Source of the DNA: Escherichia phage iGC_PHA_EC001
Sequence record: OR437326.1
Strand: one strand, 5' to 3'
Length of the DNA: 64,000 bases
Shown: in pieces, positions 28,112 to 60,293 of the stretch
Position numbering within the stretch: position 1 is the stretch's first letter
Layout of the letters: every line of letters begins with the position of its first letter
Notes under the pieces: generated by a model
Told to the model about the DNA's origin: nothing
The model's input: the letters and a program-made list of their open reading frames with translations, nothing else
The model's database searches: none
Made by a program: the position numbers and the translations under genes

Positions 28112-28172
28112 ATACTCGCTATCGCTCGACCCTTCGGGGTTAGGGTAGCATATTTTTTGAAAAAAGTCAACA
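28112..28172. repeat. about 60-bp repeated intergenic element, copy 1
   Basis: ctatactcgctatcgctcg..ttagggtagcatattttttgaaaaaagtcaa; second copy at 60237..60293 differs only in a short central segment. Confidence 0.6.
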
Positions 28173-28523
28173 CTTATTTTTGGTAAGTAGATAAATCAAT
28201 TGTTCACCTGCTTCTGGTGCATATAGTGCTTTAGTATCGAAGTCAAAGAAGTGAGTGACTCCTGTTACTTTGGATGCATGAATAGATGATCGTGCAAGCT
28301 TAAGCAGATTATCCATTTCCGCAATCTTTGCACGAAATACTGCACGTGTAGCGTCAAAAGCTGCATGTGGCATGTATTTACGATTTAGACTACTACGTTT
28401 AAATTTACGATAGTCTGCAATGATCCTGTTACGTTCTTTGTTCAAGTGCTTTACCAGTGCAGTATATACATGTGGTTCTTTGTTAGCCATTGTTAATCTC
28501 CTCTTCATATGTTGGTAGTGCAT
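28167..28523 (-). CDS. hypothetical protein (118 aa)
   Basis: ORF-track ORF. Confidence 0.5.
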   Translation of the reverse strand: MHYQHMKRRLTMANKEPHVYTALVKHLNKERNRIIADYRKFKRSSLNRKYMPHAAFDATRAVFRAKIAEMDNLLKLARSSIHASKVTGVTHFFDFDTKALYAPEAGEQLIYLLTKNKC

Positions 28524-28695
28524 GGTATGCGATCACAGGTGCCAAGTCAAAATAAAAATGACCATTGATAACAGCTATCGTGCCATTGCGTGTTTTGTTA
28601 ACTTCACAGAATCCCTTCTTGCCGTTTGCCATGATTACAAGCCACTCTCCGATAGGAACATCCTCGGTACCAGATACTTTAATCCATCCAATCAC
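28483..28695 (-). CDS. hypothetical protein (70 aa)
   Basis: ORF-track ORF; overlaps neighbour. Confidence 0.4.
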   Translation of the reverse strand: MIGWIKVSGTEDVPIGEWLVIMANGKKGFCEVNKTRNGTIAVINGHFYFDLAPVIAYHALPTYEEEINNG

Positions 28696-28952
28696 TTTAC
28701 TTCCCCTTTGTAATCGGACACTATACCAGGTCTTACTTTTGCCTTAAGATGTTTCAACTCTGCCATAGGAGTTGCCACTTGTATAAGGTTAATAATTTCA
28801 ACCTCGTAGATAGTATACTCATAACCCGCATACTTCCCGATGGAATGCAGGTATTTGATAGCATGTTCAGGTGAATCTGCTTCAACATACCCCAAATCTT
28901 TTGTAGTGCGGCCTTCACAGTCGCCTTCTGTAGTTACGTGATAAAGTGTCAT
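28692..28952 (-). CDS. hypothetical protein (86 aa)
   Basis: ORF-track ORF. Confidence 0.45.
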   Translation of the reverse strand: MTLYHVTTEGDCEGRTTKDLGYVEADSPEHAIKYLHSIGKYAGYEYTIYEVEIINLIQVATPMAELKHLKAKVRPGIVSDYKGEVK

Positions 28953-29098
28953 AAAACCTCCTCATAGTAAGGTAAAGCCTTGATCAATTGTTCTGAAGCA
29001 CCATTCTCTATCCATGTAGCCCCGTTGTCAAGAGAAACATACCCTTTCTTATCGATAAATTTACGAAGACAACCAGTGAACTTGTTTTTGTAGATCAT
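28949..29098 (-). CDS. hypothetical small protein (49 aa)
   Basis: Own translation MIYKNKFTGCLRKFIDKKGYVSLDNGATWIENGASEQLIKALPYYEEVL; ATGA overlaps at both ends. Confidence 0.35.
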   Translation of the reverse strand: MIYKNKFTGCLRKFIDKKGYVSLDNGATWIENGASEQLIKALPYYEEVL

Positions 29099-29538
29099 TT
29101 CTTCTTTCCTTTCTTTAATTTGTTGTGACCTTTACCCTTATAAAGCTTGTGATTACGAGCAGACGGGTTATTTTGGTTCTCCAGTCGGCTAACAGGTGTA
29201 TTCCAAAGGTTTCCTGCTACAAAAGATGCTGCCACAAGTTCTTCCAGGTATACAAAATCCAAAGCAGGTATCTTTGTTTCCCTAACCTCGCGTTCTACAT
29301 TAGACAACACGCCTTCTTCCTTACTGTCTTCTTTTTCAATTACAGACCAACCCTCTTCCTGCCAAGCTTCCCCTCTGAACCAAGTTTCCATGTTATAACC
29401 TTGTTCGTCGAGAATAACACCATCTCGCATCTCAAACCATTCGCCACCACAAAAATGGCGGTGCTCAACACGTCTACCTTCCTTCATTGCTTCTTTAGCT
29501 TCGGGCCAAGTCAGTTTGATGTTTTGGATGTTTTGCAT
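29095..29538 (-). CDS. hypothetical protein (147 aa), first gene of leftward block
   Basis: ORF-track ORF; Lys-rich C-terminus. Confidence 0.5.
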   Translation of the reverse strand: MQNIQNIKLTWPEAKEAMKEGRRVEHRHFCGGEWFEMRDGVILDEQGYNMETWFRGEAWQEEGWSVIEKEDSKEEGVLSNVEREVRETKIPALDFVYLEELVAASFVAGNLWNTPVSRLENQNNPSARNHKLYKGKGHNKLKKGKKK

Positions 29539-29652
29539 TTGTTTTCTCCTTTTGTTTGGTAGTAGTTGATCTTAACAAGATTAAAAAGTATGTCAATACT
29601 TGATCTGAAATTATTTTCAGGTATCATATATGAACATTAACAAGAGAGGTAG
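29539..29652. promoter_or_regulatory. divergent (strand-switch) control region
   Basis: Only gap between leftward and rightward gene blocks; AT-rich with ttgatc/ttaaca and tatcat hexamers on both strands. Confidence 0.4.
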
Positions 29653-29946
29653 ATGATGAACATTACTTTAGCAACTAAGAATATTTCTGAAACAATTAAC
29701 GGTTTTGGTGTGATTGTAGCCTTGCACGGTAACAATGAGAAATGGTTGGCTTCTTTTGAAGAGGATCGTCAGCACAACATCATTTTAGATGCTCCTATAA
29801 AAGTTATGCATATTGTTGGTGAAAGCAAAGTGCTCACTTCCTCCCGTTCAAAGGAACAAATTACAAACGAATTAGTAAAACTGCTTGACAATGTTCTTAA
29901 CATGTTTGATAATGCACCCATCGACACAAAACGTGTCTTAATGTGA
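29653..29946 (+). CDS. hypothetical protein (97 aa)
   Basis: ORF with RBS agaggtag. Confidence 0.5.
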   Translation: MMNITLATKNISETINGFGVIVALHGNNEKWLASFEEDRQHNIILDAPIKVMHIVGESKVLTSSRSKEQITNELVKLLDNVLNMFDNAPIDTKRVLM

Positions 29947-29958
29947 AAGGAGAACAAA

Positions 29959-30246
29959 ATGTACTATTCACAAGACGAAGTAGCAAACATTAAACTGGCA
30001 GTGGGAGATCTTATTGTGTCACCTAACTACTATTGGGATAACAGAGATTTGGTTGAAGTAGTAACCTATGTTGGAGTTGAAGGTATTGTGCTCTACACAC
30101 TAGGTGGAGGTGTTGTTGGGGAAATGGAACGTTATACGACAACGAAGAAACTGGTAAGCTCTTATCACATGTTTTTACACCAAGGTTCGGAAGAGTATAC
30201 AGCTTTCTTGTTGAAATTAGATGCAGATCGGGAGAAGGCACGATGA
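29959..30246 (+). CDS. hypothetical protein (95 aa)
   Basis: RBS aaggagaac. Confidence 0.5.
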   Translation: MYYSQDEVANIKLAVGDLIVSPNYYWDNRDLVEVVTYVGVEGIVLYTLGGGVVGEMERYTTTKKLVSSYHMFLHQGSEEYTAFLLKLDADREKAR

Positions 30247-30599: not shown

Positions 30600-30601
30600 A
30601 T

Positions 30602-37012: not shown

Positions 37013-37070
37013 TTGACGTTCGCCAGGTGGCGGCATAATATTTACCACGTAGCGCGGCAATGGTGCCGCT
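37013..37070 (+). promoter_or_regulatory. early promoter plus 5-prime stem-loop cassette 1
   Basis: ttgacg-N17-cataat then gcggcaatggtgccgc hairpin; RBS; ATG 37091. Confidence 0.6.
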
Positions 37071-37090
37071 CACTATTTGGAGTTAAGATC

Positions 37091-37288
37091 ATGGCAACAT
37101 TGCACATTGTGGCGAAAGCTGGACAAATCAACGTAATAGTAAACGGTTTTACTGAGTTCAGTCATCCCCAGGATGATCATGAAACGGTTTTATCTTTCAT
37201 TGATTCCCTGTTAGAAATGGGAGTCATTACAGAAGACCAGCACGCTACAAAATGCAAGCGCGTTAATCAAATTGCAGGGATAGAATAA
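37091..37288 (+). CDS. hypothetical protein (65 aa)
   Basis: Trimmed to MATLHIV downstream of cassette 1. Confidence 0.5.
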   Translation: MATLHIVAKAGQINVIVNGFTEFSHPQDDHETVLSFIDSLLEMGVITEDQHATKCKRVNQIAGIE

Positions 37289-37294
37289 AAAGTA

Positions 37295-37353
37295 TTGACA
37301 ACAAACAACAACCTGATAAGATGTATCACATAGGGCGGGAAGTGGTTTCCCGC
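37295..37353 (+). promoter_or_regulatory. early promoter plus 5-prime stem-loop cassette 2
   Basis: ttgaca..ctgataagatgtatcacata gggcgggaagtggtttcccgc; ATG 37379. Confidence 0.6.
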
Positions 37354-37378
37354 TCGTAACAGAAGAGAGATTATCATC

Positions 37379-37651
37379 ATGGCATCATATAGCGCAACAA
37401 TGATCGTAGCTGGCACAACTGGTAAACCTATGAGCGGTGTCGGATCTTTCGCTAATATCAATATTGACGGGCGTTTATCCCTGGACGCAGCGATTGCCAT
37501 TGCACGGGAAACATTTAAGAAAGAATGTAATTTCAACAAGCAAGATTATCTCGGTTTCGCTATTGAAAAAACCGCGCGCTTTGTTGATTATAAAAGCCCG
37601 AAAATGGTTGATACTACACTAAAAGCGCAAGATGTAGCGTTTTTGCTTTAA
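37379..37651 (+). CDS. hypothetical protein (90 aa)
   Basis: Follows cassette 2 with RBS agagagatt. Confidence 0.55.
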   Translation: MASYSATMIVAGTTGKPMSGVGSFANINIDGRLSLDAAIAIARETFKKECNFNKQDYLGFAIEKTARFVDYKSPKMVDTTLKAQDVAFLL

Positions 37652-37654
37652 GGC

Positions 37655-37710
37655 TTGACATTAACGAATAATTTGTTAATATGTTACATAAAGCGGGAAT
37701 AGTTCCCGCT
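37655..37710 (+). promoter_or_regulatory. early promoter plus 5-prime stem-loop cassette 3
   Basis: ttgaca-N17-taatat, gcgggaatagttcccgc; ATG 37728. Confidence 0.6.
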
Positions 37711-37727
37711 ATTTGTAAGGTGGTAGA

Positions 37728-37985
37728 ATGTTTTACATCAAATTAAAAGGTCACGTGATCGCGTTCAAAGATAACGCTTTTTACAGATTAGCAAAATATG
37801 CGTTAATACATCCCCACTATGTTTATATAAGGGGGCGTGACGAAATAAATATCTTTGATCAAACAACATGCGAAAACATCGAGATCCGCAAGGTTGGCGT
37901 ACGTGATTATCGTACATCTTTCTACCCTTGCAAGGATTCAGCAAGTCTTTTTAAGGTATGTCAATTGTTGAAAAAAGGTGGTTAA
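37728..37985 (+). CDS. hypothetical protein (85 aa)
   Basis: Follows cassette 3. Confidence 0.55.
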   Translation: MFYIKLKGHVIAFKDNAFYRLAKYALIHPHYVYIRGRDEINIFDQTTCENIEIRKVGVRDYRTSFYPCKDSASLFKVCQLLKKGG

Positions 37986-37986
37986 T

Positions 37987-38544
37987 ATGGGCCGCGAATA
38001 TGTGATCCAGTCTTGGGTAAAACATGAAGCAGATGATCCGCGCATCATTCCCGATCATCTTATCGATGAATCCACGGGATATAGCGGTGAGCAAATAGGT
38101 AACAGATTAGCACGTAGTAACGGCAACATAAAAGCGCGTTATGTGCGCCCTGGCTGGCTGGCAAATGGTAACGCTGATTTATCCAGTGCGGAAGATGCGA
38201 GCGACGGCGCGAAAGATAATCCTTTGTACAAAATTGATCCGGCTTTTCGTGTCCTGGATGAATACCCCAGCAAGATAGCGGCGCTTGATGAAGCATTGGA
38301 AAGTAAGCGCATCTCCTGGACCGCTTACAACATGGCAAAAAACGTACTTGATGGTAAATTGATTCAAGCTGAAAGAAAATTAGCCAAAATTGCAGCCATA
38401 GCCCAGGAGGAAGACGAGGAGACAACGGAAGAGGAAGAGTACGAAGAGATCCCGCCGTTGTTGTGTGTTGATGCTTTTCCTGATTATCAGCCGACAGAGG
38501 AAGAAAAAAGGATCGCACTAGAAAACTTTGAAAATAGTCTTTGA
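37987..38544 (+). CDS. hypothetical protein with acidic C-terminus
   Basis: Trimmed to MGREYVIQ (RBS aaaggtgg). Confidence 0.5.
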   Translation: MGREYVIQSWVKHEADDPRIIPDHLIDESTGYSGEQIGNRLARSNGNIKARYVRPGWLANGNADLSSAEDASDGAKDNPLYKIDPAFRVLDEYPSKIAALDEALESKRISWTAYNMAKNVLDGKLIQAERKLAKIAAIAQEEDEETTEEEEYEEIPPLLCVDAFPDYQPTEEEKRIALENFENSL

Positions 38545-38599
38545 CATATCGCCGCCACTGGCATAATATTTACCACGTAGGGCGGCAATGGTGCCGCTC
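38541..38599 (+). promoter_or_regulatory. early promoter plus 5-prime stem-loop cassette 4
   Basis: ttgaca-N17-cataat, gggcggcaatggtgccgctc. Confidence 0.6.
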
Positions 38600-38626
38600 A
38601 TAGTGAAATTATGCAAGAGGTTTACA

Positions 38627-38722
38627 ATGATTGATAAAGAAAATAGCTTGACGGTTGGAACGATTAACGCTATCATTCTTGCCGTTCCATTTTGGATTGT
38701 ATTAGCGGCTATTATTTTCTAA
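38627..38722 (+). CDS. small membrane peptide (31 aa)
   Basis: Own translation MIDKENSLTVGTINAIILAVPFWIVLAAIIF after cassette 4. Confidence 0.35.
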   Translation: MIDKENSLTVGTINAIILAVPFWIVLAAIIF

Positions 38723-38731
38723 AAAATATTC

Positions 38732-38792
38732 TTGACAACGTTTTTTAATCTGATAAGATGTATCACATAGGGCGGCGGAATACTTCCCCGCC
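38732..38792 (+). promoter_or_regulatory. early promoter plus 5-prime stem-loop cassette 5
   Basis: ttgaca..ctgataagatgtatcacata gggcggcggaatacttccccgcc; ATG 38814. Confidence 0.6.
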
Positions 38793-38813
38793 AAAACAAA
38801 AAAGGGTAACACA

Positions 38814-39176
38814 ATGAGCAAGCAAATCAATACTATCATGTTTAATCTGGTATCTTTCCGCGATGATATGAAAAATTTACCACGTGAAACGGTTGATATT
38901 CATGTTTCAGCTTATCGCGCCCTTATTGATATGTTACCGCTAAAACGTGATCAACATGCCGCTAATATGATGCTTAATGCTATGCTTAAAAAGATGATTC
39001 AAACGGATCTTACTCTGGCGTATGAGTATCAAGGGCGCTTATATGCTACTTACAACAAAGCGGTACCTGGTCTGGGAAGTACCGAAGAGTTGCACGGCTT
39101 AAACCTGGATCAAAACACTTGGGATAGTATGCGCCGCGTTATGGTATGGGCCGAAAGCGGTAAAATTTACGAATAA
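38814..39176 (+). CDS. hypothetical protein (120 aa)
   Basis: Follows cassette 5. Confidence 0.55.
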   Translation: MSKQINTIMFNLVSFRDDMKNLPRETVDIHVSAYRALIDMLPLKRDQHAANMMLNAMLKKMIQTDLTLAYEYQGRLYATYNKAVPGLGSTEELHGLNLDQNTWDSMRRVMVWAESGKIYE

Positions 39177-39182
39177 AAACGG

Positions 39183-39240
39183 TTGACACTGTTTAAAATT
39201 CTGGTATAGTTTATCACGTAGGGCGGCAATGGTGCCGCCA
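39183..39240 (+). promoter_or_regulatory. early promoter plus 5-prime stem-loop cassette 6
   Basis: ttgaca-N17-tatagt, gggcggcaatggtgccgcc. Confidence 0.6.
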
Positions 39241-39259
39241 ATAATGAAAGGTTAACATC

Positions 39260-39439
39260 ATGGCTATCATTGCAAAAACTGAGATTATAGGTTTAGATCC
39301 GATCCTCCTGGCTTATGAGGAAACTTTAAAAATGTATGTAGTGACCTATGGTGATTATGTGCGTGAATACGAATACATTGATCTTGCTTTCGAATGTTAC
39401 ATTCGCCAGGTCAATAAAGCCTATAACGATTATCGTTAA
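39260..39439 (+). CDS. hypothetical protein (59 aa)
   Basis: Own translation MAIIAKTEIIGLDPILLAYEETLKMYVV.. after cassette 6. Confidence 0.5.
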   Translation: MAIIAKTEIIGLDPILLAYEETLKMYVVTYGDYVREYEYIDLAFECYIRQVNKAYNDYR

Positions 39440-39450
39440 AAGTTTTAGTC

Positions 39451-39487
39451 TTATACTATTGACAATGAGTGATAGTATAAGCATAAT
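39451..39487 (+). promoter_or_regulatory. sigma70-like promoter with flanking 9-bp inverted repeat (operator-like), no stem-loop
   Basis: TTATACTAT-ttgacaatgagtg-ATAGTATAA then cataat; upstream of gene 39535. Confidence 0.45.
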
Positions 39488-39534
39488 AACTTTTATCGGG
39501 AATACTCCTAACTAATCAAAAGAGATTAAAGACT

Positions 39535-39900
39535 ATGGCTAAAAATATCAATGTTTCTGCTTATGCTACCCTGGCTAACACTGCTAAAATTGAACTATCC
39601 AGCATTGAAGCGGTACATATTAGCGCCCGTCGCTGGTTTCAAAAGTCTTATGGTAATACTTATTTCTCTTTGATGGTTGACGTTGAGATCGGCGGTAAAC
39701 TGATCGAAGTGGTTAACGTTCCGTTTCAATATGGCTATGGGGATCATTTTGATACCGTCGCCCTAGAAGAGTTTAGCAAGGTTATCAACCTGGAAGGTAA
39801 AGAGTTTTCAAATTATGCCTACCTTTCCCGTTTTTGCCGTGACAATGGGATCACTGTATACAGTCATGCGAGCGATGTAAAACGTAAAAAAGATTTATAA
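39535..39900 (+). CDS. hypothetical protein (121 aa)
   Basis: ORF-track ORF, RBS aaagag. Confidence 0.55.
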   Translation: MAKNINVSAYATLANTAKIELSSIEAVHISARRWFQKSYGNTYFSLMVDVEIGGKLIEVVNVPFQYGYGDHFDTVALEEFSKVINLEGKEFSNYAYLSRFCRDNGITVYSHASDVKRKKDL

Positions 39901-39905
39901 AAAGC

Positions 39906-39965
39906 ATTGACAGCACGAATAAAAAGAGTAAACTGTATTACATAGAGAGCGGGAACACTTCCCGC
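39906..39965 (+). promoter_or_regulatory. early promoter plus 5-prime stem-loop cassette 7
   Basis: ttgaca..gtaaactgtattacata, gcgggaacacttcccgc; ATG 39990. Confidence 0.6.
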
Positions 39966-39989
39966 CTCACTGAAAAAGAGAGAAAAATC

Positions 39990-40229
39990 ATGGCTAAATC
40001 TAAAATGTACAACGGTCACAAAAACAAAACTCATTGGAATGTAAGCCTTTGGATTAATAACGATGAATCGTTATACCGGTTGGCCCAAGATTTTATTAAC
40101 GCTAATGCTAATCGTAATGATGCGGCGCGGGATATGATGCTTTTTCTGGAACAAACTGGACAAGATAAAACGCCAGACGGTTTCAAATATAGCACTACTG
40201 CGATCCGTGCCGCGATGGTTGGAATGTAA
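39990..40229 (+). CDS. hypothetical protein (79 aa)
   Basis: Follows cassette 7. Confidence 0.55.
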   Translation: MAKSKMYNGHKNKTHWNVSLWINNDESLYRLAQDFINANANRNDAARDMMLFLEQTGQDKTPDGFKYSTTAIRAAMVGM

Positions 40230-40238
40230 TAAAAACAG

Positions 40239-40298
40239 TTGACAACGTTTAAAATTAGTGTAAGATGTATCACATAGGGCGGGAAGTGGTTTCCCGCC
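40239..40298 (+). promoter_or_regulatory. early promoter plus 5-prime stem-loop cassette 8
   Basis: ttgaca..gtaagatgtatcacata gggcgggaagtggtttcccgcc; ATG 40320. Confidence 0.6.
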
Positions 40299-40319
40299 AA
40301 AACAGAGAGATTAAAGATT

Positions 40320-40547
40320 ATGGCTATCAATATTGTTCGCGTATCCGGCACCGTTGGCACTTCCCAGGTTATTGCAGTTGTAACAAACAAAAAGATTAAT
40401 GATGTATGTGAGATCTTGAATAAGTGGGCTATTGCTAATTTTGGGGAATATGCAAGCGTCGAGTACATCGAATCCTACCAGGTGCCAACCATCAGCCTAA
40501 CCGATCTCAACGTTGATCGCCTGTTATGCCTGGATGAATTGATCTGA
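40320..40547 (+). CDS. hypothetical protein (75 aa)
   Basis: Follows cassette 8. Confidence 0.55.
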   Translation: MAINIVRVSGTVGTSQVIAVVTNKKINDVCEILNKWAIANFGEYASVEYIESYQVPTISLTDLNVDRLLCLDELI

Positions 40548-40556
40548 AAAAGATTG

Positions 40557-40614
40557 TTGACACCGGAAAGAAAAAGAGTAAACTGTATTACGTAGGGCGG
40601 CAATGGTGCCGCTC
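40557..40614 (+). promoter_or_regulatory. early promoter plus 5-prime stem-loop cassette 9
   Basis: ttgaca..gtaaactgtattacgta gggcggcaatggtgccgctc; ATG 40638. Confidence 0.6.
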
Positions 40615-40637
40615 ACAACAAAAGAGAGATTATTACG

Positions 40638-40850
40638 ATGGCTAATATCCGCACACTGTTAAAAAATGCAAGTCAAGTTTTATTTTCTGATCACGATCAT
40701 TTTAATAAAGATATTACAGGCGTGAAGAATATCAAAGATGTAAAAAGTGTTATGGGTATATATTGCAATGTTAAACGTGTTGGAACTTTCGGTGATAAAG
40801 TATTGTACCAATCAGGGGATTACAATTTTACTTTGACAATTATTTCATAA
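40638..40850 (+). CDS. hypothetical protein (70 aa)
   Basis: Follows cassette 9. Confidence 0.55.
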   Translation: MANIRTLLKNASQVLFSDHDHFNKDITGVKNIKDVKSVMGIYCNVKRVGTFGDKVLYQSGDYNFTLTIIS

Positions 40851-40856
40851 AACCGC

Positions 40857-40918
40857 TTGCAATCTTAATAAAATAAAGTAAACTGTATTACATCAAGGCG
40901 GCGGAATGGTCCACCGCC
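40857..40918 (+). promoter_or_regulatory. early promoter plus 5-prime stem-loop cassette 10
   Basis: ttgcaa..gtaaactgtattacatca ggcggcggaatggtccaccgcc; ATG 40943. Confidence 0.55.
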
Positions 40919-40942
40919 TAACAAAGAGAAGAGGAAAATATC

Positions 40943-41164
40943 ATGATCACTTTCGCTATTGTCGCCGTTGTCGCTGGTCAGGTTTACGTAAACGATACAT
41001 TCACCACAGAAGACAAGGCCGCAGGAGACATAACCGCCGTTTACAACGAGTGCAAGGCAGTAGAAAGGATGTTAGCGCCTTGTATGTTAATGAGTGAACG
41101 CCAGGACGGGATAACAGTGTTTACTAACATTGAAACAGGGTACCAAATGGTAGTAACAAAATAA
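40943..41164 (+). CDS. hypothetical protein (73 aa)
   Basis: Follows cassette 10. Confidence 0.55.
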   Translation: MITFAIVAVVAGQVYVNDTFTTEDKAAGDITAVYNECKAVERMLAPCMLMSERQDGITVFTNIETGYQMVVTK

Positions 41165-41167
41165 AGC

Positions 41168-41224
41168 TTGACACGGATTTAATTTTCAGTAAACTGTTAC
41201 ACGTAGGGCGGGAATAGTTCCCGC
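41168..41224 (+). promoter_or_regulatory. early promoter plus 5-prime stem-loop cassette 11
   Basis: ttgaca..gtaaactgttacacgta gggcgggaatagttcccgc; ATG 41243. Confidence 0.6.
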
Positions 41225-41242
41225 TAAAAAGAGAGAAAGACC

Positions 41243-41596
41243 ATGAAAGCACAAAATGCAATTAAAGAGTACATCCTTGCCGCTATCGATTTTAATGATT
41301 ACGGTATTACAACCGAAAAAGAGAAGATCGCGGAATTGATGCGCCGTTTTAATTCCGAGTACTGGTACCCTGATAATCAATCACGTTTTAATTATAGTAT
41401 TGTTAAAGCACTTGCATCATGGTTACAAGGCTTGCCATCAGATATTAACATAGCTTTCGAATATTGGGAAATTGATCGTTTGTTAACATCCTGGGGATAC
41501 ATTAAAGAGAATAGCAGCGATGATAAAATCCAACGAGAAAGGGAAAATTATTGGCTTTATATTGCAGGCGTGATCCTTGCTTGCTCTTATGAATGA
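41243..41596 (+). CDS. hypothetical protein (117 aa)
   Basis: Follows cassette 11. Confidence 0.55.
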   Translation: MKAQNAIKEYILAAIDFNDYGITTEKEKIAELMRRFNSEYWYPDNQSRFNYSIVKALASWLQGLPSDINIAFEYWEIDRLLTSWGYIKENSSDDKIQRERENYWLYIAGVILACSYE

Positions 41597-41602
41597 TAAA
41601 CC

Positions 41603-41657
41603 TTGACAATTTTACAAAACAGTTTAAATTAATAATATAGCGGCAATGGTGCCGCTC
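41603..41657 (+). promoter_or_regulatory. early promoter plus 5-prime stem-loop cassette 12
   Basis: ttgaca-N17-taatat, gcggcaatggtgccgctc; ATG 41676. Confidence 0.55.
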
Positions 41658-41675
41658 ATATAAAGAGGAAACAAA

Positions 41676-41822
41676 ATGAATACATCTAATCGCGCAGAAA
41701 AAATTCAATCTTCCAAGATCCGCAAGGCCTGGAACGAGGAAGTGATCCGCAAAGGCGACAAGCGTAATAAAACAAAGCGCGGGAAGAGTGACAAATATAA
41801 TTGGATGGATTTAGAGGATTAA
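41676..41822 (+). CDS. small basic protein (48 aa)
   Basis: Own translation MNTSNRAEKIQSSKIRKAWNEEVIRKGDKRNKTKRGKSDKYNWMDLED after cassette 12. Confidence 0.45.
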   Translation: MNTSNRAEKIQSSKIRKAWNEEVIRKGDKRNKTKRGKSDKYNWMDLED

Positions 41823-41829
41823 CATAACA

Positions 41830-41858
41830 AGGGCGCACCAAGCGCCCTTTCTTTTTAC
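41830..41858 (+). terminator. rho-independent terminator (repeated hairpin family, copy 1)
   Basis: agggcgcaccaagcgccct followed by ttctttttac. Confidence 0.65.
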
Positions 41859-41877
41859 ATGTAGAGGATAAACAAAA

Positions 41878-42063
41878 ATGACTTTAAACGAGCTTAAAAC
41901 AGCCTACAACGCAACATTAAAAATAGCCGTGCGTTACCGTGACGAATACGGTTTTATTGCGCAGGGCGTTATCCTGGGCTTTTCTGACGATGGTTTGATC
42001 TATGTTGATGCACATCACAACAAGGTTAAACCGGAAAACGTTATCAGTATAAAATATCTTTAA
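41878..42063 (+). CDS. hypothetical protein (61 aa)
   Basis: ORF-track ORF, RBS agaggataa. Confidence 0.45.
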   Translation: MTLNELKTAYNATLKIAVRYRDEYGFIAQGVILGFSDDGLIYVDAHHNKVKPENVISIKYL

Positions 42064-42068
42064 AAGTG

Positions 42069-42128
42069 GTTGACACCATAACCGGACCTGTTAAACTGTA
42101 TTACATCAGGCGGGGAATAGTTCCCACC
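42069..42128 (+). promoter_or_regulatory. early promoter plus 5-prime stem-loop cassette 13
   Basis: ttgaca..gttaaactgtattacatca ggcggggaatagttcccacc; ATG 42148. Confidence 0.55.
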
Positions 42129-42147
42129 ATACAAAAAGGTAAATATT

Positions 42148-42354
42148 ATGATCACCGCAAAACAAGAAAAAATCATTATCGACGTTGCAGCCGTAGCCGC
42201 TATTGCTATTATCGGTACCTACTATGACACCGCGCGTCCTTCCTCCTTGCATGAGATCGCCGCCGTTGCATCAGTTGGCGTACTGTTTTACGTTGGTAAA
42301 CGCTATTTATCACCAATGATTAACAAGCTGACACCGTGGAAAAATAAAGGTTGA
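42148..42354 (+). CDS. small membrane protein (68 aa)
   Basis: Hydrophobic segment AAVAAIAIIGTYY; follows cassette 13. Confidence 0.5.
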   Translation: MITAKQEKIIIDVAAVAAIAIIGTYYDTARPSSLHEIAAVASVGVLFYVGKRYLSPMINKLTPWKNKG

Positions 42355-42405
42355 TCCTGTTTTATATTGTGTTATAGTTATCGTGTAGGGCGGCAATGGT
42401 GCCGC
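42351..42405 (+). promoter_or_regulatory. early promoter plus 5-prime stem-loop cassette 14
   Basis: ttgatc..ttatagttatcgtgta gggcggcaatggtgccgc; ATG 42426. Confidence 0.5.
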
Positions 42406-42425
42406 GCCCCTTTGAGGATGCAATC

Positions 42426-42710
42426 ATGAGTAAAGCTAACACCGTGCTAATGTTTTCCCTGATTAATGATCCCGCTTACTTGTCCAACATGACGCAGGAG
42501 GGTAACACATTAACGGCAACATTCACCAATAAGCTTGACCGAGTGATCATCATCTCACTGAAAACAGTTAGTAAAGGCTTTTACTCGTTAGCTTATCATT
42601 GGATCACTGATACCGATGAGACAAGCCAGGACTATAGCGCCCCTTTCCCTGAATCAATGGCACGGGAGATCATCGCCGCCGTTGTAAATGATGGTTTGTT
42701 TACTGGATAA
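42426..42710 (+). CDS. hypothetical protein (94 aa)
   Basis: Trimmed to MSKANTVLMF after cassette 14. Confidence 0.5.
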   Translation: MSKANTVLMFSLINDPAYLSNMTQEGNTLTATFTNKLDRVIIISLKTVSKGFYSLAYHWITDTDETSQDYSAPFPESMAREIIAAVVNDGLFTG

Positions 42711-42728
42711 AATAATTCAGAAAAAGGC

Positions 42729-42785
42729 TTGCAATCATTTTGGGATAATGTATATTTAATGCATAGGGCGGCGGGAATAGTTCCC
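42729..42785 (+). promoter_or_regulatory. early promoter plus 5-prime stem-loop cassette 15
   Basis: ttgcaa-N17-tatatt..gcata gggcggcgggaatagttccc; ATG 42809. Confidence 0.5.
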
Positions 42786-42808
42786 AAAGCAAACGAGAGG
42801 ATTACACG

Positions 42809-42928
42809 ATGAGCAAGTACACAGTAGAATACACGGTAGAGAATCCGGCAGTATCCGAAGGTAAAAAGATGACATTTGCCATCAGTATAATCGCTTTCGT
42901 TGTCACTATCTTATCAATCATCTTATAA
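42809..42928 (+). CDS. small membrane peptide (39 aa)
   Basis: Own translation MSKYTVEYTVENPAVSEGKKMTFAISIIAFVVTILSIIL. Confidence 0.4.
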   Translation: MSKYTVEYTVENPAVSEGKKMTFAISIIAFVVTILSIIL

Positions 42929-42938
42929 GGTGCACACC

Positions 42939-43100
42939 ATGAAAACAACAGATATTATCAAAGAGATCGCCCTTGCCGCTGACGTTGAGATCGAGGAAGT
43001 GATCGCGCTCAATCTTACAGAAAACGATCTGCGCAACTATGAAGCGGAAAGCGTGAAAGCAAGTGGCGCGGTCCTGGCATATAATCCGGCTAACAAATAG
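42939..43100 (+). CDS. hypothetical protein (53 aa)
   Basis: Trimmed to MKTTDIIKEIA. Confidence 0.4.
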   Translation: MKTTDIIKEIALAADVEIEEVIALNLTENDLRNYEAESVKASGAVLAYNPANK

Positions 43101-43101
43101 T

Positions 43102-43159
43102 TTGACAAGCTGAATCAACCTGATAAGATGTATCACATAGGGGCGACAAGCGCCCCGCC
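43102..43159 (+). promoter_or_regulatory. early promoter plus 5-prime stem-loop cassette 16
   Basis: ttgaca..ctgataagatgtatcacata ggggcgacaagcgccccgcc; ATG 43181. Confidence 0.6.
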
Positions 43160-43180
43160 TAACAGAAGAGAGAAAAAATC

Positions 43181-43459
43181 ATGACCATCGTTAAATTAAC
43201 AACCGAAGAAATGAAAACAATGTTAACCACTAATTTACAAAATTGGAAAATTGGTGTTGACGTTGAAACAGTGTGCAAGTTGAACGACAAACTAACACCG
43301 GACGACATTGAAACGATCATCCGTGCAGATTTCTATGATGCTTTATACGATGATTCCACAGTCCTTGAAACGATGTTGGATAACGCTTGGATCAATCCCG
43401 ATTTGGCGGCTTATGGTCATCTTGCCTTTGAAGCCATCCATAATGTTTATAATCGTTAA
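43181..43459 (+). CDS. hypothetical protein (92 aa)
   Basis: Follows cassette 16. Confidence 0.55.
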   Translation: MTIVKLTTEEMKTMLTTNLQNWKIGVDVETVCKLNDKLTPDDIETIIRADFYDALYDDSTVLETMLDNAWINPDLAAYGHLAFEAIHNVYNR

Positions 43460-43469
43460 GGGGGATAAC

Positions 43470-43580
43470 ATGAATCCGAAAGATATGCAAGCATGGAAAG
43501 GGTACGACGATCTAAGCGCCTTGCGCAATAAGTCAAGCCGTAACCTTAGACGGTTGGAAGCAAAGAAAAAGAAAAAATAG
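43470..43580 (+). CDS. small basic protein (36 aa)
   Basis: MNPKDMQAWKGYDDLSALRNKSSRNLRRLEAKKKKK with RBS aagggggat. Confidence 0.4.
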   Translation: MNPKDMQAWKGYDDLSALRNKSSRNLRRLEAKKKKK

Positions 43581-43581
43581 T

Positions 43582-43640
43582 TTGACAAGTCCGCCTAGTC
43601 TGATAATATGTATCTTGTAGGGCGGCAATGGTGCCGCTCA
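43582..43640 (+). promoter_or_regulatory. early promoter plus 5-prime stem-loop cassette 17
   Basis: ttgaca..ctgataatatgtatcttgta gggcggcaatggtgccgctc; ATG 43659. Confidence 0.6.
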
Positions 43641-57898: not shown

Positions 57899-58170
57899 TG
57901 GATAGACAAACCTTAAAAACAATGGCAGATGCCACTAATTCCCCATACTTTGAAAAAGTAAGTAAATTGGTAGCTCAAGCCGCAGAGGAAGGATATTATA
58001 ACATAAACATCCACAACCCAAGTCTTATACTAGAAATGCCAGGTGATAAGAAGATACAAGAGAGTATCTGTGAAGGTATTGTTAGTTACTGGCGCGAGCG
58101 TGGGTGTGGTGCAAACATGGCTTTAGACAGTGCAAACGTTGTAAGATATATAAATATTTCTTGGGGGTGA
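57898..58170 (+). CDS. hypothetical protein (90 aa)
   Basis: ORF-track ORF. Confidence 0.5.
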   Translation: MDRQTLKTMADATNSPYFEKVSKLVAQAAEEGYYNINIHNPSLILEMPGDKKIQESICEGIVSYWRERGCGANMALDSANVVRYINISWG

Positions 58171-58211
58171 TTTTATGATTCAATGCACTCATATCCAAAT
58201 TACTTGGAGAG

Positions 58212-58787
58212 ATGAACTTTACCATTTGGGGGCAATTTACTGTAGGGGAAACATACCCTATCATTAAACATAATCCTAACATCGCAAACTTTGACAGGAT
58301 GGTTCTTGTTGAGGACGATCTGGGTCAAACTTATTCTTTAGATCTAAAATATCCGTTTTCTTACGGCTACGATTGGATCGTTACTTTTGAAGACGTGGAG
58401 GAAAATAAAACAATGAACGAAAAAAATTCTTGGTATTATCGTTGTGAACTGCCGCCAGTAGGTGAAAAGGTTATCTTTGTTCCTGATTTGGAAAGATATT
58501 CTTGGGAAAGTTCTTATTCTGTTCCTAAAGAAGGCACCGAAGTTGAAGTTATTGCACATCGCACAACTTCGCATGGTAACGATGTAGCAGTTGTTTTCTG
58601 GGATGATGAAGGCGCTGCTTGTGCAGGTGGCTTTGTTGCAGGTAATTTTGAACCCCTGCCAGATCCTTTGAAGGAGGCAATTTTAGGCGTAGCTTCTTTT
58701 GGACTCTCTTACACATCTGCACAAGAGATCGTGGAAGGTATTTTAAACGGTACCGTTCCAAACGAAATTTTTAAACAGATTAAATAA
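58212..58787 (+). CDS. hypothetical protein (191 aa); start uncertain
   Basis: ORF-track ORF; well-placed RBS precedes an out-of-frame ATG at about 58175. Confidence 0.5.
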   Translation: MNFTIWGQFTVGETYPIIKHNPNIANFDRMVLVEDDLGQTYSLDLKYPFSYGYDWIVTFEDVEENKTMNEKNSWYYRCELPPVGEKVIFVPDLERYSWESSYSVPKEGTEVEVIAHRTTSHGNDVAVVFWDDEGAACAGGFVAGNFEPLPDPLKEAILGVASFGLSYTSAQEIVEGILNGTVPNEIFKQIK

Positions 58788-58793
58788 TAGTTG

Positions 58794-58815
58794 CACCCCG
58801 TTCTGCGGGGTGTTA
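58794..58815 (+). terminator. terminator hairpin
   Basis: caccccg-ttct-gcggggtg then ttattg. Confidence 0.5.
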
Positions 58816-58838
58816 TTGTATATGTAAAGGAGGCGCTA

Positions 58839-59177
58839 ATGTATTACACTGAAGACTACATACTGTATAACTTTTTTAAAGGTTGGTTGAAATGGGCGGA
58901 ACAAGCTCCTGTCGGAGATTGTGTTTTTCCTTGGGATTCTCGTCAAGGTTTGTGTCGTTGTTTGGAAGATTGGCTTATAACCACAAACTACAATTCAGAA
59001 ACTAAGAAATCTACATCAAACAGATTAAAAATGTTATTTGAAGAAGATGGTTTAGATCCAATTTATCCTTTCGGTGAGGAAAGTTTCCACAATGGTCTTT
59101 TCCTTGGCACTCAACATTATGATAAAGATCGCGTAGATTGGGTAAAAGAAAAGGTAGCACAGTATGAATGGGGTTAA
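58839..59177 (+). CDS. paralog family A member 7
   Basis: Trimmed to MYYTEDYILYNFFKGWLKWAE..QGLCRCL..YPFGEE..DKDRVDWVKE, RBS aaaggagg. Confidence 0.55.
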   Translation: MYYTEDYILYNFFKGWLKWAEQAPVGDCVFPWDSRQGLCRCLEDWLITTNYNSETKKSTSNRLKMLFEEDGLDPIYPFGEESFHNGLFLGTQHYDKDRVDWVKEKVAQYEWG

Positions 59178-59367
59178 GAATTATCACCGCTGGTTAGAAA
59201 GCTATCTTAAGAAATGTGAACTTGGCGTTCCAGGTTATACTTACGACACGGACGAGATCCTTGATGAAATGGAAGTTTGGTTTAAAGAGCCTCGTGAACT
59301 ATTGGAAAACATTCTAATGGCTTGGGATGGTACGGCACAAAGCATTGAAGGAGGTAGAAATGAGTAA
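59164..59367 (+). CDS. hypothetical protein (67 aa)
   Basis: ORF-track ORF. Confidence 0.45.
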   Translation: MNGVKNYHRWLESYLKKCELGVPGYTYDTDEILDEMEVWFKEPRELLENILMAWDGTAQSIEGGRNE

Positions 59368-59494
59368 GAAATTGTTTAATATTCGTGAGAACCGTGATGG
59401 ATCGTTCTCTGTAGTCAATGAGTTTAACGTTTCGGTTGGGACTTTTATTACTAAACGTCAAGCAGAACAAGTAAGAGATACTTTAAACAAGTAA
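59360..59494 (+). CDS. hypothetical small protein (44 aa)
   Basis: Own translation MSKKLFNIRENRDGSFSVVNEFNVSVGTFITKRQAEQVRDTLNK; strong RBS gaaggaggt. Confidence 0.45.
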   Translation: MSKKLFNIRENRDGSFSVVNEFNVSVGTFITKRQAEQVRDTLNK

Positions 59495-59511
59495 ATTTTT
59501 AAGGGGGACTT

Positions 59512-59931
59512 ATGTTAGGTAAGATCAAAGCCTTTTTCAAACGTATCATCGAAGGAAGTCCAACAGAAGGTGCATTAGGAAGATCTCTAACAGGAGAACC
59601 ACTTGCCATAATTTCTATCAGTCGGCATGGGGGGTATTCCATTCGACAAACACCTTTAGGTATAAAAGGTAGTATGCTTTCTTGGACAATATCTCAAGTT
59701 GGTGATAACAGACTTGCAGCTATAGCATTGCTTCGTGGGGAGTATGACTATTGTTTATCAGCATCTTGTAAAAAGCACCTCATAGAGCACATTAAAGACA
59801 GAGTAGAAAGAGAAGGCGGATACTTCTTCGAAACTAAGAGAAACGAACAAGGAACTCTTGACTTCACTAAGGTTTACTGGGACAATCATACTCGTCAAAC
59901 TGTTGAACAACTTCTGGAGGAAAGATGTTAA
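59512..59931 (+). CDS. hypothetical protein (139 aa)
   Basis: ORF-track ORF, RBS aagggggac. Confidence 0.55.
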   Translation: MLGKIKAFFKRIIEGSPTEGALGRSLTGEPLAIISISRHGGYSIRQTPLGIKGSMLSWTISQVGDNRLAAIALLRGEYDYCLSASCKKHLIEHIKDRVEREGGYFFETKRNEQGTLDFTKVYWDNHTRQTVEQLLEERC

Positions 59932-60134
59932 AAGCTTTTGCTATATACTCTACTGTAGGATTCTTTTATTGGATTATAGTTATTGTCGGATGTTGGTTAG
60001 GTTCTTCTGTTGTGATGGGAGAATGGTTAACATACAATGTATTTGAATGGGATGTAGTTTGTAGATCATTACTTGTTATATGGACTGCTATTGTTTGTTG
60101 GATAACTGTTAGTCTAACATTAGATCTATATTGA
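59925..60134 (+). CDS. small membrane protein (69 aa)
   Basis: Two hydrophobic segments. Confidence 0.45.
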   Translation: MLKAFAIYSTVGFFYWIIVIVGCWLGSSVVMGEWLTYNVFEWDVVCRSLLVIWTAIVCWITVSLTLDLY

Positions 60135-60236
60135 TTAATAGATGGTAGATAGATGATCATAGTTTATCTACCTTCACTTACGTTTCATACCTCACTATCG
60201 TGAGTAACATGAAACATTATTATATAGAAATCTACT

Positions 60237-60293
60237 ACTCGCTATCGCTCGTAAACATATGTTTAGGGTACCATATTTTTTTGAAAAAGTCAA
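60237..60293. repeat. about 60-bp repeated intergenic element, copy 2
   Basis: ctactactcgctatcgctcg..tttagggtaccatatttttttgaaaaagtcaa; see copy 1 at 28112..28172. Confidence 0.6.

Follow-up and report, generated by a model that had tools for sequence, protein, structure and literature searches.

What does a repeat of about 60 bp do in a phage genome where it stands once among leftward genes and once in a rightward block, with its ends kept and its middle changed? We addressed this question in the 64,000-nt window, i.e., the whole stretch of DNA analysed, which is that of a phAPEC8-like Phapecoctavirus. The repeats are very probably copies of a conserved phage transcription-start module, in which an E. 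coli-type promoter pointing left is directly followed by a small, unusual hairpin. Taken as a whole, a promoter with a hairpin that caps the 5' end of its transcript is, on balance, the best explanation.

Two copies of a discrete unit

Two conserved blocks flank a divergent core at 28113-28170 and at 60236-60293, an arrangement that far exceeds chance. TACTCGCTATCGCTCG has just two occurrences in the window, 28113-28128 and 60236-60251, where 0.12 are expected with at most three mismatches and two or more were seen in 0 of 100 shuffles; TTAGGGTA(G/C)CATATTTTTT also has two, 28140-28158 and 60263-60281, with 0.08 expected. The sequence-only reading had reported two copies in the same orientation, copy 1 upstream of a leftward gene and copy 2 in a gap of the rightward block, and our reading of the sequence together with these searches confirms this; copy 1 lies between two leftward ORFs. 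The difference in run lengths between the copies (T6/A6 vs T7/A5) is also real and leaves the total length constant.

Read on the minus strand, each copy has, in this order, TTGACT, a spacer of 17 nt with TGn at its end, TACCCT, 13 nt in which the copies differ, and CGAGC-GATA-GCGAG (the box). The copies agree at 27/30 positions in the promoter part (TTGACT to TACCCTA), 2/12 in the core and 14/14 in the box (16/16 including the next TA), with only 4/15 nt upstream and 8/20 nt downstream outside the unit. We are therefore dealing with a self-contained unit of about 62-66 bp rather than with a longer common repeat of no specific placement, which the earlier reading had named as the finding that would speak against it. 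The divergent core, different as it is, forms a small palindrome in both copies (ACCCCGAAGGGT and TAAACATATGTTTA). The parts of copy 1 and its first gene are as follows:

28165..28170, minus strand: -35 hexamer TTGACT (sequence and pattern scan); contains the TGA stop codon of the upstream ORF 28167..28523
28148..28164, minus strand: 17-nt spacer TTTTTCAAAAAATATGC, a T-run/A-run dyad ending in TGc (extended -10, TG at 28150-28149)
28142..28147, minus strand: -10 hexamer TACCCT, keeping T-12, A-11 and T-7 around a C-rich middle (pattern scan and alignment)
28129..28141, minus strand: divergent core AACCCCGAAGGGT, from the discriminator to the first transcribed bases, palindrome ACCC-CGAA-GGGT
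28135, minus strand: predicted start G, placed by the usual 7-nt distance after the -10 hexamer
28115..28128, minus strand: hairpin box CGAGC-GATA-GCGAG, predicted +8 to +21 (alignment, flank covariation, RNAalifold)
27800..27997, minus strand: first gene after copy 1, 65 aa, phrog_25113, function unassigned; RBS AGGAG, predicted 5' UTR of about 138 nt

Copy 2 and its surroundings comprise the following:

60288..60293, minus strand: -35 hexamer TTGACT (sequence and pattern scan)
60271..60287, minus strand: 17-nt spacer TTTTCAAAAAAATATGG, ending in TGg, extended -10 (sequence, pattern scan and alignment)
60265..60270, minus strand: -10 hexamer TACCCT (sequence and pattern scan)
60252..60264, minus strand: divergent core AAACATATGTTTA, palindrome TAAACA/TGTTTA, with the predicted start A at 60258
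60238..60251, minus strand: hairpin box CGAGC-GATA-GCGAG; with outer pairs the hairpin covers about 60255..60234 (covariation, RNAalifold and folding)
60181..60214, minus strand: second hairpin of the predicted transcript, GTTTCAT...ATGAAAC with inner CTCAC-GATA-GTGAG
60145..60183, strand unspecified: stem-loop GGTAGATA...TATCTACC, the rho-independent terminator of the upstream rightward operon according to the annotation of a close relative

A probable leftward promoter in each copy

The reverse complement of the right-hand block gives a near-consensus -35 (5/6 match in both copies), a 17-nt spacer, TG at -15/-14 and TAnnnT, and each copy is very probably a leftward-firing extended -10 promoter of the sigma70 type. 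Among the functions listed by the sequence-only reading, promoter is the one supported. Exactly the -35, spacer length, TGn and TAnnnT positions are conserved across genera, and we regard this interpretation as well supported. The accompanying statement that the element is not simply a promoter for one strand fails, since the two copies point the same way and either would direct transcription leftward, copy 1 along with its own genes and copy 2 antisense to the rightward block. The host polymerase, carrying sigma70, would bind TTGACT, the spacer with its TGn, and TACCCT, and transcription would begin about 7 nt after the -10, near 28135 and near 60258, respectively; the exact start sites of both copies are those we infer. 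The T7 A1 promoter also has TTGACT as its -35.

The -10 hexamer counts against a promoter, as TACCCT matches the consensus at only 3/6 positions, and a simple consensus promoter scanner listed neither copy. Unlike in sigma70 extended -10 promoters of E. coli and its phages, the core CCC of the -10 is kept in nearly all copies of the phage subfamily, a conserved structured box stands at about +8, and one copy has no downstream gene; T-12, A-11 and T-7, the spacing, and the position upstream of genes (copy 1 and a third copy) are as in those promoters. Among 15 aligned copies from five lineages, no variation is seen at TT.A of the -35, TG.TACCCTA, CGAGCG and GCGAG, while spacer and core vary; TTGAC is retained in 13 of the 15, and the rest of the spacer drifts between genera around the invariant TG. 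We then scanned metagenomes for TTGAC-N15-TGn-TAnnnT-N12-16-box (23 specified bases, less than one chance match estimated), which yielded 56 distinct sequences. TACCCT is the -10 in 25 of these, and TATTCT, TATTAT, TAAGCT, TATCCT, TATAAT and others take its place elsewhere, variation within TAnnnT that appears, by its pattern, to be the drift of a real -10 element.

Distribution of the module

Whole-genome scans of phAPEC8 and phi92 returned exactly three copies each at syntenic sites, and three uncultured relatives also have three each. The third copy lies outside our window, points rightward and heads the tRNA and late region; like the structured hairpin in the left-hand block, it had escaped the sequence-only reading. 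From genus to genus, spacer and core drift, but hexamers, TG and box are retained. We found 72 distinct promoter-plus-box sequences in total, the hosts including integrase-linked elements in Citrobacter, Buttiauxella and Scandinavium, where the hairpin comes after the promoter that follows the integrase gene, and an rRNA operon, where the same GA hairpin comes after the promoter about 115 nt upstream of 16S. Neither an Rfam family nor a paper describing the promoter-hairpin module was found.

What the two copies would transcribe

Copy 1 would serve as a promoter within the leftward gene block, situated some 1.4 kb behind the divergent early control region, with 27800..27997 as its first gene; please note that the PHROG profile begins at residue 14 of the longer form of this ORF. 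Copy 2 lies within a 360-bp gap between the rightward ORFs 59925..60134 and 60495..60710, and among the window ORFs checked there is none downstream, leftward, for it to express. The RNA made from it would be non-coding, with a length of about 80-120 nt or more; it would run antisense to the 3' end of a rightward early operon and reach the terminator at 60145..60183 from the opposite side. The predicted RNA folds better than its shuffles (z = -2.9), and its second hairpin carries a motif, TnTTnCATGT, common to the copy-2 homologues of other genera and the leaders of the integrative elements.

The hairpin behind the start site

The box is the tip of a hairpin, i.e., C-G, tandem G.A/A.G, G-C, C-G and a G..A loop. 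Its arms are constant, whereas the loops are GAA, GAAA, GATA, GCA, GTAA, GGGA and similar, the first base always G and the last base A with one exception. Since the inner stem is invariant, covariation support comes from the three flanking pairs: these positions are paired in 83.8% of cells vs 72.0 +/- 2.9 in shuffled alignments (0/500), with a covariation score of 0.376 vs 0.160 in shuffles (0/500), and sliding the partners as a control left 28-48% paired. The pair adjoining the box is A-U in seven copies and C-G in six, and RNAalifold independently gave ((((..((....))..)))) with compensatory changes. The T.G pairs in the stem are compatible only with the promoter-sense strand. Copy 1 has zero outer pairs, and in copy 2 the last 3-4 nt of the core (TTTA) pair with TAG(T) beyond the box.

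The first 20-25 nt of the RNA would thus fold into a variable outer stem of 0-4 bp topped by this tip, and it is probable that the hairpin acts within RNA. It may cap transcript 5' ends as a fast-folding, nuclease-resistant structure that guards against 5'-end-dependent decay, and perhaps also offer a handle for a conserved factor. We tentatively favor stabilization of the 5' end as its main role, an RNA polymerase modifier or a replication primer being other possibilities in what we infer of its role, and a role of the box in single-stranded DNA is possible too. Like 5' stem-loop stabilizers of the ompA-leader type and PHIRE hairpins, it stands a few nucleotides from the predicted 5' end and behind several promoters per genome; unlike the ompA type, its stem is not plain Watson-Crick, having a fixed CGAGC/GCGAG core with tandem G.A. 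Counting against a stabilizer, the predicted starts leave 3-8 nt unpaired at the 5' end, at or past the limit that classic 5' stabilizers tolerate. The RNA model also leaves the core palindrome unexplained, because it is centred on the predicted start and only half of it would be transcribed.

Alternative explanations

If the hairpin acts in RNA, it could instead modify the elongating polymerase, as in processive antitermination by nut, put or rrn leaders: once the transcript is about 35 nt long, it would emerge from RNA polymerase and, by itself or together with a conserved factor, let the enzyme pass terminators in the long operons and, in the case of copy 2, the bidirectional terminator at 60145-60183. 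The box lies 11-16 nt after the -10, a near-fixed short distance from strong promoters that recurs in unrelated elements, and as in lambda nut (boxA plus boxB), rRNA antitermination leaders and HK022 put, the hairpin is near a promoter heading long operons; each of the three large transcription directions is headed by one of the three copies. Co-oriented intrinsic terminators follow copy 1 (20490..20470 and 14028..14011), many terminators are annotated inside operons of close relatives, and in the rRNA operon leader the hairpin comes just before a Gram-positive-type boxA-like sequence (AACCTTGAAAAC). Lambda boxB loops are likewise closed by a sheared G..A pair. This reading is nevertheless rather unlikely: in the phage copies boxA-like sequences are not enriched within 120 nt after the box, with hit rates no better than in random genome segments, the loops of 3-4 nt differ from the boxB pentaloop, and the hairpin is nearer the start site than in those systems. 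Also unlikely, to our reading, are transcription-primed replication origins, in which transcription from the promoter yields a primer or R-loop, and the non-template strand, once displaced, folds into a GCG(N)NAGC mini-hairpin that resists SSB and marks the entry of the phage primase-helicase. The box core GCGATAGC (GCGAAGC or GCGCAGC elsewhere) matches exactly the GCGNAGC/GCGNNAGC consensus of the mini-hairpin DNA of Hirao and colleagues, which is reported to be stabler as DNA than as RNA and to occur at ssDNA phage priming sites (G4, St-1 and alpha3), at ssiA and in N4 early promoters, and both are tied to start sites of nucleic-acid strand synthesis. As in the T7 primary origin, T4 oriF/oriG and ColE1 RNA II, the transcript of copy 2, which has no gene to express, need not code; the phage encodes a T7-like primase-helicase and a Pol I-type polymerase. 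Within 50-150 nt past the third copy, GC content drops to 8-18% in all lineages examined, and phAPEC8 additionally has GTAC-containing repeats and the local minimum of the cumulative GC skew. The integrative elements have the module at the head of roughly 1 kb of non-coding DNA, which contains direct repeats and adjoins a primase gene. However, the module also stands in front of an rRNA operon and ordinary protein-coding genes, places in which an origin would make no sense, neither copy 1 nor copy 2 has a marked AT trough past the intergenic norm, and the skew minimum at copy 3 is the point where the transcription direction switches, a coincidence noted likewise in rV5. Unlike mini-hairpin DNA, moreover, the module sits in a double-stranded genome 3' of a conventional promoter and has in addition a tandem G.A step and an outer stem that covaries and includes T.G wobble pairs, which are more typical of RNA; this extension therefore points to RNA.

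The remaining alternatives give the element a role as duplex DNA or as coding sequence. The box, and perhaps also the invariant TGCTACCCTA, might be an operator, bound by a regulator of phage or host origin, for switching the three promoters on or off together: each genome has three coordinated sites, most Stephanstirmvirinae copies strictly keep CGAGCG..GCGAG and TACCCTA though TATAAT would be the stronger -10, and integrative elements with the module could sense a helper phage. This is quite improbable, as the half-sites are a mirror repeat, neither direct nor inverted, the spacing between them differs by 1-3 bp, with the -10 anywhere from 11 to 16 nt away, the flanks covary as a stem, TAAGCT replaces TACCCT in one relative, and the motif occurs in organisms unable to share one regulator. 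Integrative element and phages have no protein in common. A site for recombination, inversion or homing, i.e., repeated DNA for segment exchange or mobile gene insertion, had been proposed in the sequence-only reading, and we find it very improbable. Genes on the transcribed side of copies 1 and 2 do differ between genera while those behind the promoter are conserved, and phAPEC8 and phi92 encode serine recombinase-like proteins; yet small early genes are variable throughout these phages, over 60 collinear genomes of Phapecoctavirus, as well as other genera, have the copies in the same place and orientation, and zero rearrangements between copies were seen in the genomes compared. What is conserved is promoter hexamers and hairpin, with the central core conserved least, the opposite of a crossover site. 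That copy 2 is protein-coding is scarcely credible, although several public records annotate an ATG-initiated ORF of 39 aa across the element (60209..60328; phAPEC8 gp264, ASO2A_058): it has no PHROG family match and no equivalent in copy 1, the run-length differences between the copies would shift its frame, and conservation tracks nucleic-acid signals rather than codons.

To return to the promoter followed by a capping hairpin, the roughly ten early promoters of this phage have a conserved hairpin of their own directly past the start site. These early-promoter hairpins correspond to the motif annotated as "PHIRE" in phAPEC8.

The repeat and its placement

The ~60-bp element lies twice in the same orientation, at 28113-28170 (copy 1) and 60236-60293 (copy 2), as the sequence-only reading had described. 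With up to three mismatches allowed, a search of the 64 kb for the left block, TACTCGCTATCGCTCG, gives exactly two sites (0.12 expected), and one for the right block, TTAGGGTA(G/C)CATATTTTTT, also gives exactly two (0.08 expected). On the minus strand, the two copies agree at 27/30 positions from TTGACT to TACCCTA, at 2/12 in the core, i.e., the divergent stretch between the -10 and the hairpin box, and at 14/14 in the box, and the identity of the flanks is near-random. With its ~62-66 bp, the repeat is a self-contained unit and does not belong to a longer one, which had been considered as a possible objection. Copy 1 sits between two leftward ORFs, ~1.4 kb into the leftward DNA-metabolism arm. 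Both copy regions have matches in more than 60 phAPEC8-like phages (Phapecoctavirus, Stephanstirmvirinae) at 95-99%, phi92-like phages being more distant; no tRNA or tmRNA genes were found in the window. The repeat is real and functional-looking. Its best reading, a promoter with a hairpin in the leader, is ordinary as phage regulatory annotation.

The probable promoter half

Each copy reads on the minus strand as TTGACT, 17 nt ending in TGn, TACCCT, A plus 12 variable nt, CGAGC-GATA-GCGAG (the box, or GA hairpin), and TA. This is the layout of a sigma70 extended -10 promoter: the -35 is near TTGACA in both copies (TTGACT; TTGAC in 13/15 aligned copies), the 17-nt spacer of both window copies falls within 16-18 nt and carries a TG at -15/-14 that is invariant in A2, one of our alignments of element copies, and TACCCT conforms to TAnnnT, with 3/6 matches to TATAAT that are the critical ones, T-12, A-11, and T-7. 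Neither copy was listed by a stricter -10 scan demanding at least 4/6 consensus matches. Transcription is predicted to start from a G at 28135 (copy 1) and an A at 60258 (copy 2), which places the box at ~+8 to +21. The invariant columns among 15 aligned copies are TT.A of the -35, TG.TACCCTA, CGAGCG, and GCGAG; the spacer and the core drift.

When metagenomes were scanned with the promoter plus box pattern TTGAC-N15-TGn-TAnnnT-N12-16-CGAGCG-N1-2-AGCGAG, 65 loci with 56 distinct sequences were found; less than one chance match is estimated because 23 bases are specified. TACCCT is the -10 in 25 of the 56 sequences, and the others have TATTCT, TATTAT, TAAGCT, TATCCT, TATAAT, TACGCT, etc.; a copy-1-type element on a 147.7-kb contig, similar in size to the relatives, has TAAGCT. 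The -10 position thus drifts as a -10 element does, and TACCCT is therefore a lineage preference rather than a separate signal. Judged from sequence, the upstream half of the element is probably a real promoter, in keeping with one of the functions first suggested for it. The two conserved ends and the variable core noticed in the sequence-only reading stand, with their parts now assigned: the right-hand end is the putative promoter, the left-hand end is the box in the initially transcribed region, and the core is the discriminator through the start-site stretch.

TACCCT resembles the sigmaS-type CTAYRCT. A special sigma signal of this kind was set aside, with TAAGCT in one relative and ordinary hexamers in other lineages. 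TACCCTA is strongly preferred in this subfamily. Most copies also have a small palindrome centred on the predicted start site, and the spacers of copies 1 and 2 contain a T-run/A-run dyad. Our literature search found no transcriptomes of this phage group.

The hairpin box

The box arms, CGAGC and GCGAG, are constant and would pair as C-G, G.A, A.G, G-C, and C-G, and 5'-CGAG-3' is the classic context of tandem sheared G.A pairs. The loop varies in both sequence and length (GAA, GAAA, GATA, GCA, GTAA, GGGA, etc.), its first base always being G and its last base being A in all but one. The pairing extends into the flanks: the mean contiguous paired run of box-flanking nucleotides is 2.56 versus 1.03 with shuffled partners (0/2000), and in alignment A3, 83.8% of the flanking cells are paired versus 72.0 +/- 2.9 in shuffles (0/500), with a covariation score of 0.376 versus 0.160 (0/500), and when the partners are slid out of register, the paired share is 28-48%. 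The pair adjoining the box is A-U in seven A3 copies and C-G in six. RNAalifold on the five copy-2 homologues alone returned the same ((((..((....))..)))) fold with compensatory changes. There are T.G pairs in the stem, and therefore the structure can form only on the promoter-sense strand, i.e., in RNA or in the non-template DNA strand.

Known 5'-terminal stem-loop mRNA stabilizers have their hairpin ~0-4 unpaired nt from the 5' end; from the predicted starts, the unpaired tail is estimated at ~3-4 nt for copy 2 and ~7 nt for copy 1, and it is mostly 3-5 or 8 nt among 72 sequences if a start 7 nt after the -10 is assumed. A terminator reading of the box, which would call for a G+C-rich hairpin with an immediate U-run, was rejected: on the minus strand, the U-run after the box is absent in both copies, and all that was listed on the plus strand of copy 1 is a weak candidate of 5 pairs whose T-run is distant. 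The "mini-hairpin DNA" consensus, GCGNAGC/GCGNNAGC, reviewed in PMC13037366, is matched on sequence by GCGATAGC in both window copies and fits 14/15 aligned copies, the exception being the copy of Citrobacter phage Tr1 (GCGAATGC). No Rfam covariance model reached its gathering score in the whole window, and permissive Rfam scans of the copy 1 surroundings, the IMG/VR palindrome, and the bacterial repeat gave chance matches or miRNA-like ones caused by the inverted repeats. For HK022 put RNA, which has two stem-loops, Rfam likewise offered no match. Literature searches with the box sequence and with its spurious translation found nothing relevant.

Copy 2 and its predicted RNA

Within the rightward early arm, copy 2 occupies a gap of 360 bp, with a predicted terminator before it (60145-60183) and a promoter after it.

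60209-60328, plus strand: 39-aa ORF over copy 2, in public records as phAPEC8 gp264 and ASO2A_058
60181-60214, minus strand: TnTTnCATGT motif in a second hairpin, 20-55 nt after the GA hairpin (alignment A5)
60428-60457, plus strand: strong rightward extended -10 promoter, TTGACA-18-TACATT with TG

The 39-aa ORF is probably a spurious gene call, and the module reading removes it from the annotation: it has no PHROG match and no counterpart at copy 1, where the run lengths are frame-shifting. The predicted copy 2 RNA folds with z = -2.9. Its TnTTnCATGT motif does not vary among copy-2 homologues from three phage lineages and five leaders of chromosomes or integrative elements, and this common motif suggests a small-RNA family. 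The rightward promoter beside copy 2 makes the two a back-to-back divergent pair. This promoter, 135 bp right of copy 2, restarts the early operon.

Copies in related phages

A scan of the whole phAPEC8 genome for further copies, a check that had been proposed at the outset, found exactly three.

phAPEC8 genome 57861-57916 (outside the window), rightward: third copy, in the divergent intergenic region that precedes the tRNA cluster and late genes
phAPEC8 genome 57861-58160 (locus L003 7861-8160): third-copy region, with GTAC-containing repeats and AT-rich palindromes after the copy

Exactly three copies, at sites corresponding to those of phAPEC8, are present in phi92; three uncultured relatives have three each, and two were found in Citrobacter phage Tr1. 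Where detected in relatives, phrog_14778 (behind copy 1) and phrog_16110 (right of copy 2) are syntenic, and the genes on the transcribed side of the copies vary. Phages of the phAPEC8-like and phi92-like kinds serve in therapy and biocontrol work; for them, the three copies are unannotated, co-conserved putative transcription start modules, and one of the three probably makes an antisense non-coding RNA.

GC content falls to 8-18% after the third copy, and the phAPEC8 region listed above holds a trough of 19-21% GC together with the local minimum of cumulative GC skew. The region looks origin-like, yet transcription also changes direction at this place. Genome ends were discarded as an explanation: the terminal repeats of phi92 are at the record ends, far from every copy. 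Some records annotate a "repeat_region" close to the third copy; it is an AT-rich repeat of 55 bp. One public assembly (nieznany) simply breaks in this region.

Integrative elements and rRNA operons

The same promoter plus box is present in Citrobacter sp. OP27 (L216, CP191518.1), Buttiauxella (L253, L265), Scandinavium (L214), and the contig L107 (IMGVR_UViG_3300011753_000040). In the integrative elements, the module comes directly after an upstream gene that is a tyrosine integrase where examined (L216, L107), and it opens a ~1-kb non-coding leader with 35-nt direct repeats, small ORFs coming after. Farther downstream, L107 has an endonuclease VII-like and a primase-like gene; L216 encodes a DUF5906 protein. 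These elements may be satellites of Stephanstirmvirinae-like phages; tblastn found no protein common to the integrative element and the phages phAPEC8 and phi92, and the leader had no match in complete E. coli genomes. P4 was rejected as a model for them, as it is without such a box.

Metagenome contigs carry the module in another setting.

L311 4652-4819 (also L281, L297, L300, L321): rRNA operon promoter, TTGACA-N17-TAT(T/C)(C/A)T

There the same CGAGCGAAAGCGAG hairpin comes after the promoter, at ~115 nt from the start of the 16S gene on its upstream side, and a Gram-positive-type boxA-like AACCTTGAAAAC comes next.

Possible function of the module

A second set of promoters in the window has hairpins as well.

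37054-43637, plus strand: early promoters, ~10 sites, TTGACA-N17-TAnnAT, hairpin at the start site (e.g., 37054-37069, 38582-38597, 39223-39238, 40597-40612, 41208-41224, 43622-43637)
20470-20490, both strands: strong bidirectional stem-loop terminator, 9-bp stem with T-runs on either side
14011-14028, leftward: second terminator

The early-promoter hairpin is conserved and G+C-rich (GGGCGGCAATGGTGCCGC or GCGGGAAnnnTTCCCGC), and an RBS and a small gene follow; these sites correspond to the "PHIRE" promoters annotated in the phAPEC8 record. Since the early promoters too carry start-site hairpins, placing one right after the start is a general feature of this genome, with the element of copies 1 and 2 forming a second class of promoter-hairpin that is less common. 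Both terminators are downstream of copy 1, within the long leftward operon.

In the best supported account, host RNA polymerase would initiate at each copy in the leftward direction, with the GA hairpin forming from the first 20-25 nt. Transcription from copy 1 would enter the leftward genes with a 5' UTR of ~138 nt, and that from copy 2 would give a structured non-coding antisense RNA. We favor the hairpin as a protective 5'-end cap, possibly doubling as a factor handle, because of where it lies, because it recurs on transcripts that are untranslated or have long leaders, and because the early promoters have hairpins that parallel it.

The hairpin might instead modify the polymerase for antitermination. 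As in nut and rrn antitermination leaders, it is promoter-proximal (boxB-like), the same hairpin occurs in the rRNA leader, and co-oriented terminators at 20490..20470 and 14028..14011 would be there to be read through; however, boxA, the other part of such leaders, is absent from the phage copies, as no consistent match to CGCTCTTA or TGCTCTTTAACAA was found within 120 nt downstream of the box, the rates being no better than in random genome segments. A transcription-primed origin using the DNA mini-hairpin would fit the orphan position of copy 2 and the GC trough plus skew minimum after the third copy, but the module also precedes rRNA and ordinary genes. As a duplex operator, the box would be bound by a regulator as double-stranded DNA, against which speak its mirror symmetry, variable spacing, and covarying flanks. 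Recombination or homing, another role initially proposed for the two same-orientation copies, is not borne out by comparison with related phages: the copies keep syntenic sites in collinear genomes, rearrangement or insertion endpoints do not coincide with the element, gene content varies on the transcribed side only with no exchange between copies, and the centre is the least conserved part.

In unrelated phages, integrase-linked elements, and an rRNA operon, this small non-Watson-Crick hairpin is found again 11-16 nt behind housekeeping-type promoters, and this breadth gives the motif moderate wider interest. Should all these hairpins share one function, such as protection of the RNA 5' end, polymerase modification, or priming, it would interest a general readership; should the hairpin be no more than a stabilizer, the finding is useful yet ordinary regulatory annotation. 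At the far end, and in our view unlikely when all its parts are taken together, the CGAGC-G(N)NA-GCGAG hairpin would be an undescribed, very widespread RNA module after strong promoters (rRNA operons, phages, integrative elements) acting on the transcription complex or a universally conserved factor (e.g., a put-like antiterminator or an anti-Rho cap), and copy 2 would encode a small RNA that shares its family with the Enterobacterales integrative-element leader, allowing phage-satellite cross-talk.

The box in palindromic repeats

The box is also the tip of abundant bacterial palindromic repeats, TGTCAT-TCC-GAGCGAAGCGAG-GAA-TCT, i.e., TGTCAT-TCC-GAGCG(N)AGCGAG-GAA-TCT, in Acidobacteria, Chloroflexi, Bacteroidales, Alphaproteobacteria, and others.

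L211, L215, L223, L229 (3206-3288), L250, L252, L268, and many further genome contigs: palindromic repeat loci
L138 2033-2161 and ~25 further podovirus-like IMG/VR contigs (L140, L149, L155, L196, others): ~130-bp palindrome

The bacterial repeats are often inverted pairs 40-90 bp apart, and their outer stems covary (ATTCC/GGAAT, ATTTC/GAAAT, ATCCC/GGGAT, ATTGC/GCAAT). They matched no Rfam family, and neither they nor the promoter plus hairpin module had a name in our Rfam or literature searches. The podovirus-like palindrome consists of two divergent copies of TACCCTATCCCCCCC(A/T)A-CGAGCG(A/G)AGCGAG and lies directly before the genes for the terminase large subunit and a SU10-type portal; judging from resemblance, this pair may be homologous to the module or may be a chance likeness multiplied by related contigs. 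Repeat families of their own with the same box are found in Desulfovibrio cuneatus and in Nocardioides oceani, the latter with six tandem units of ~144 bp (L241).
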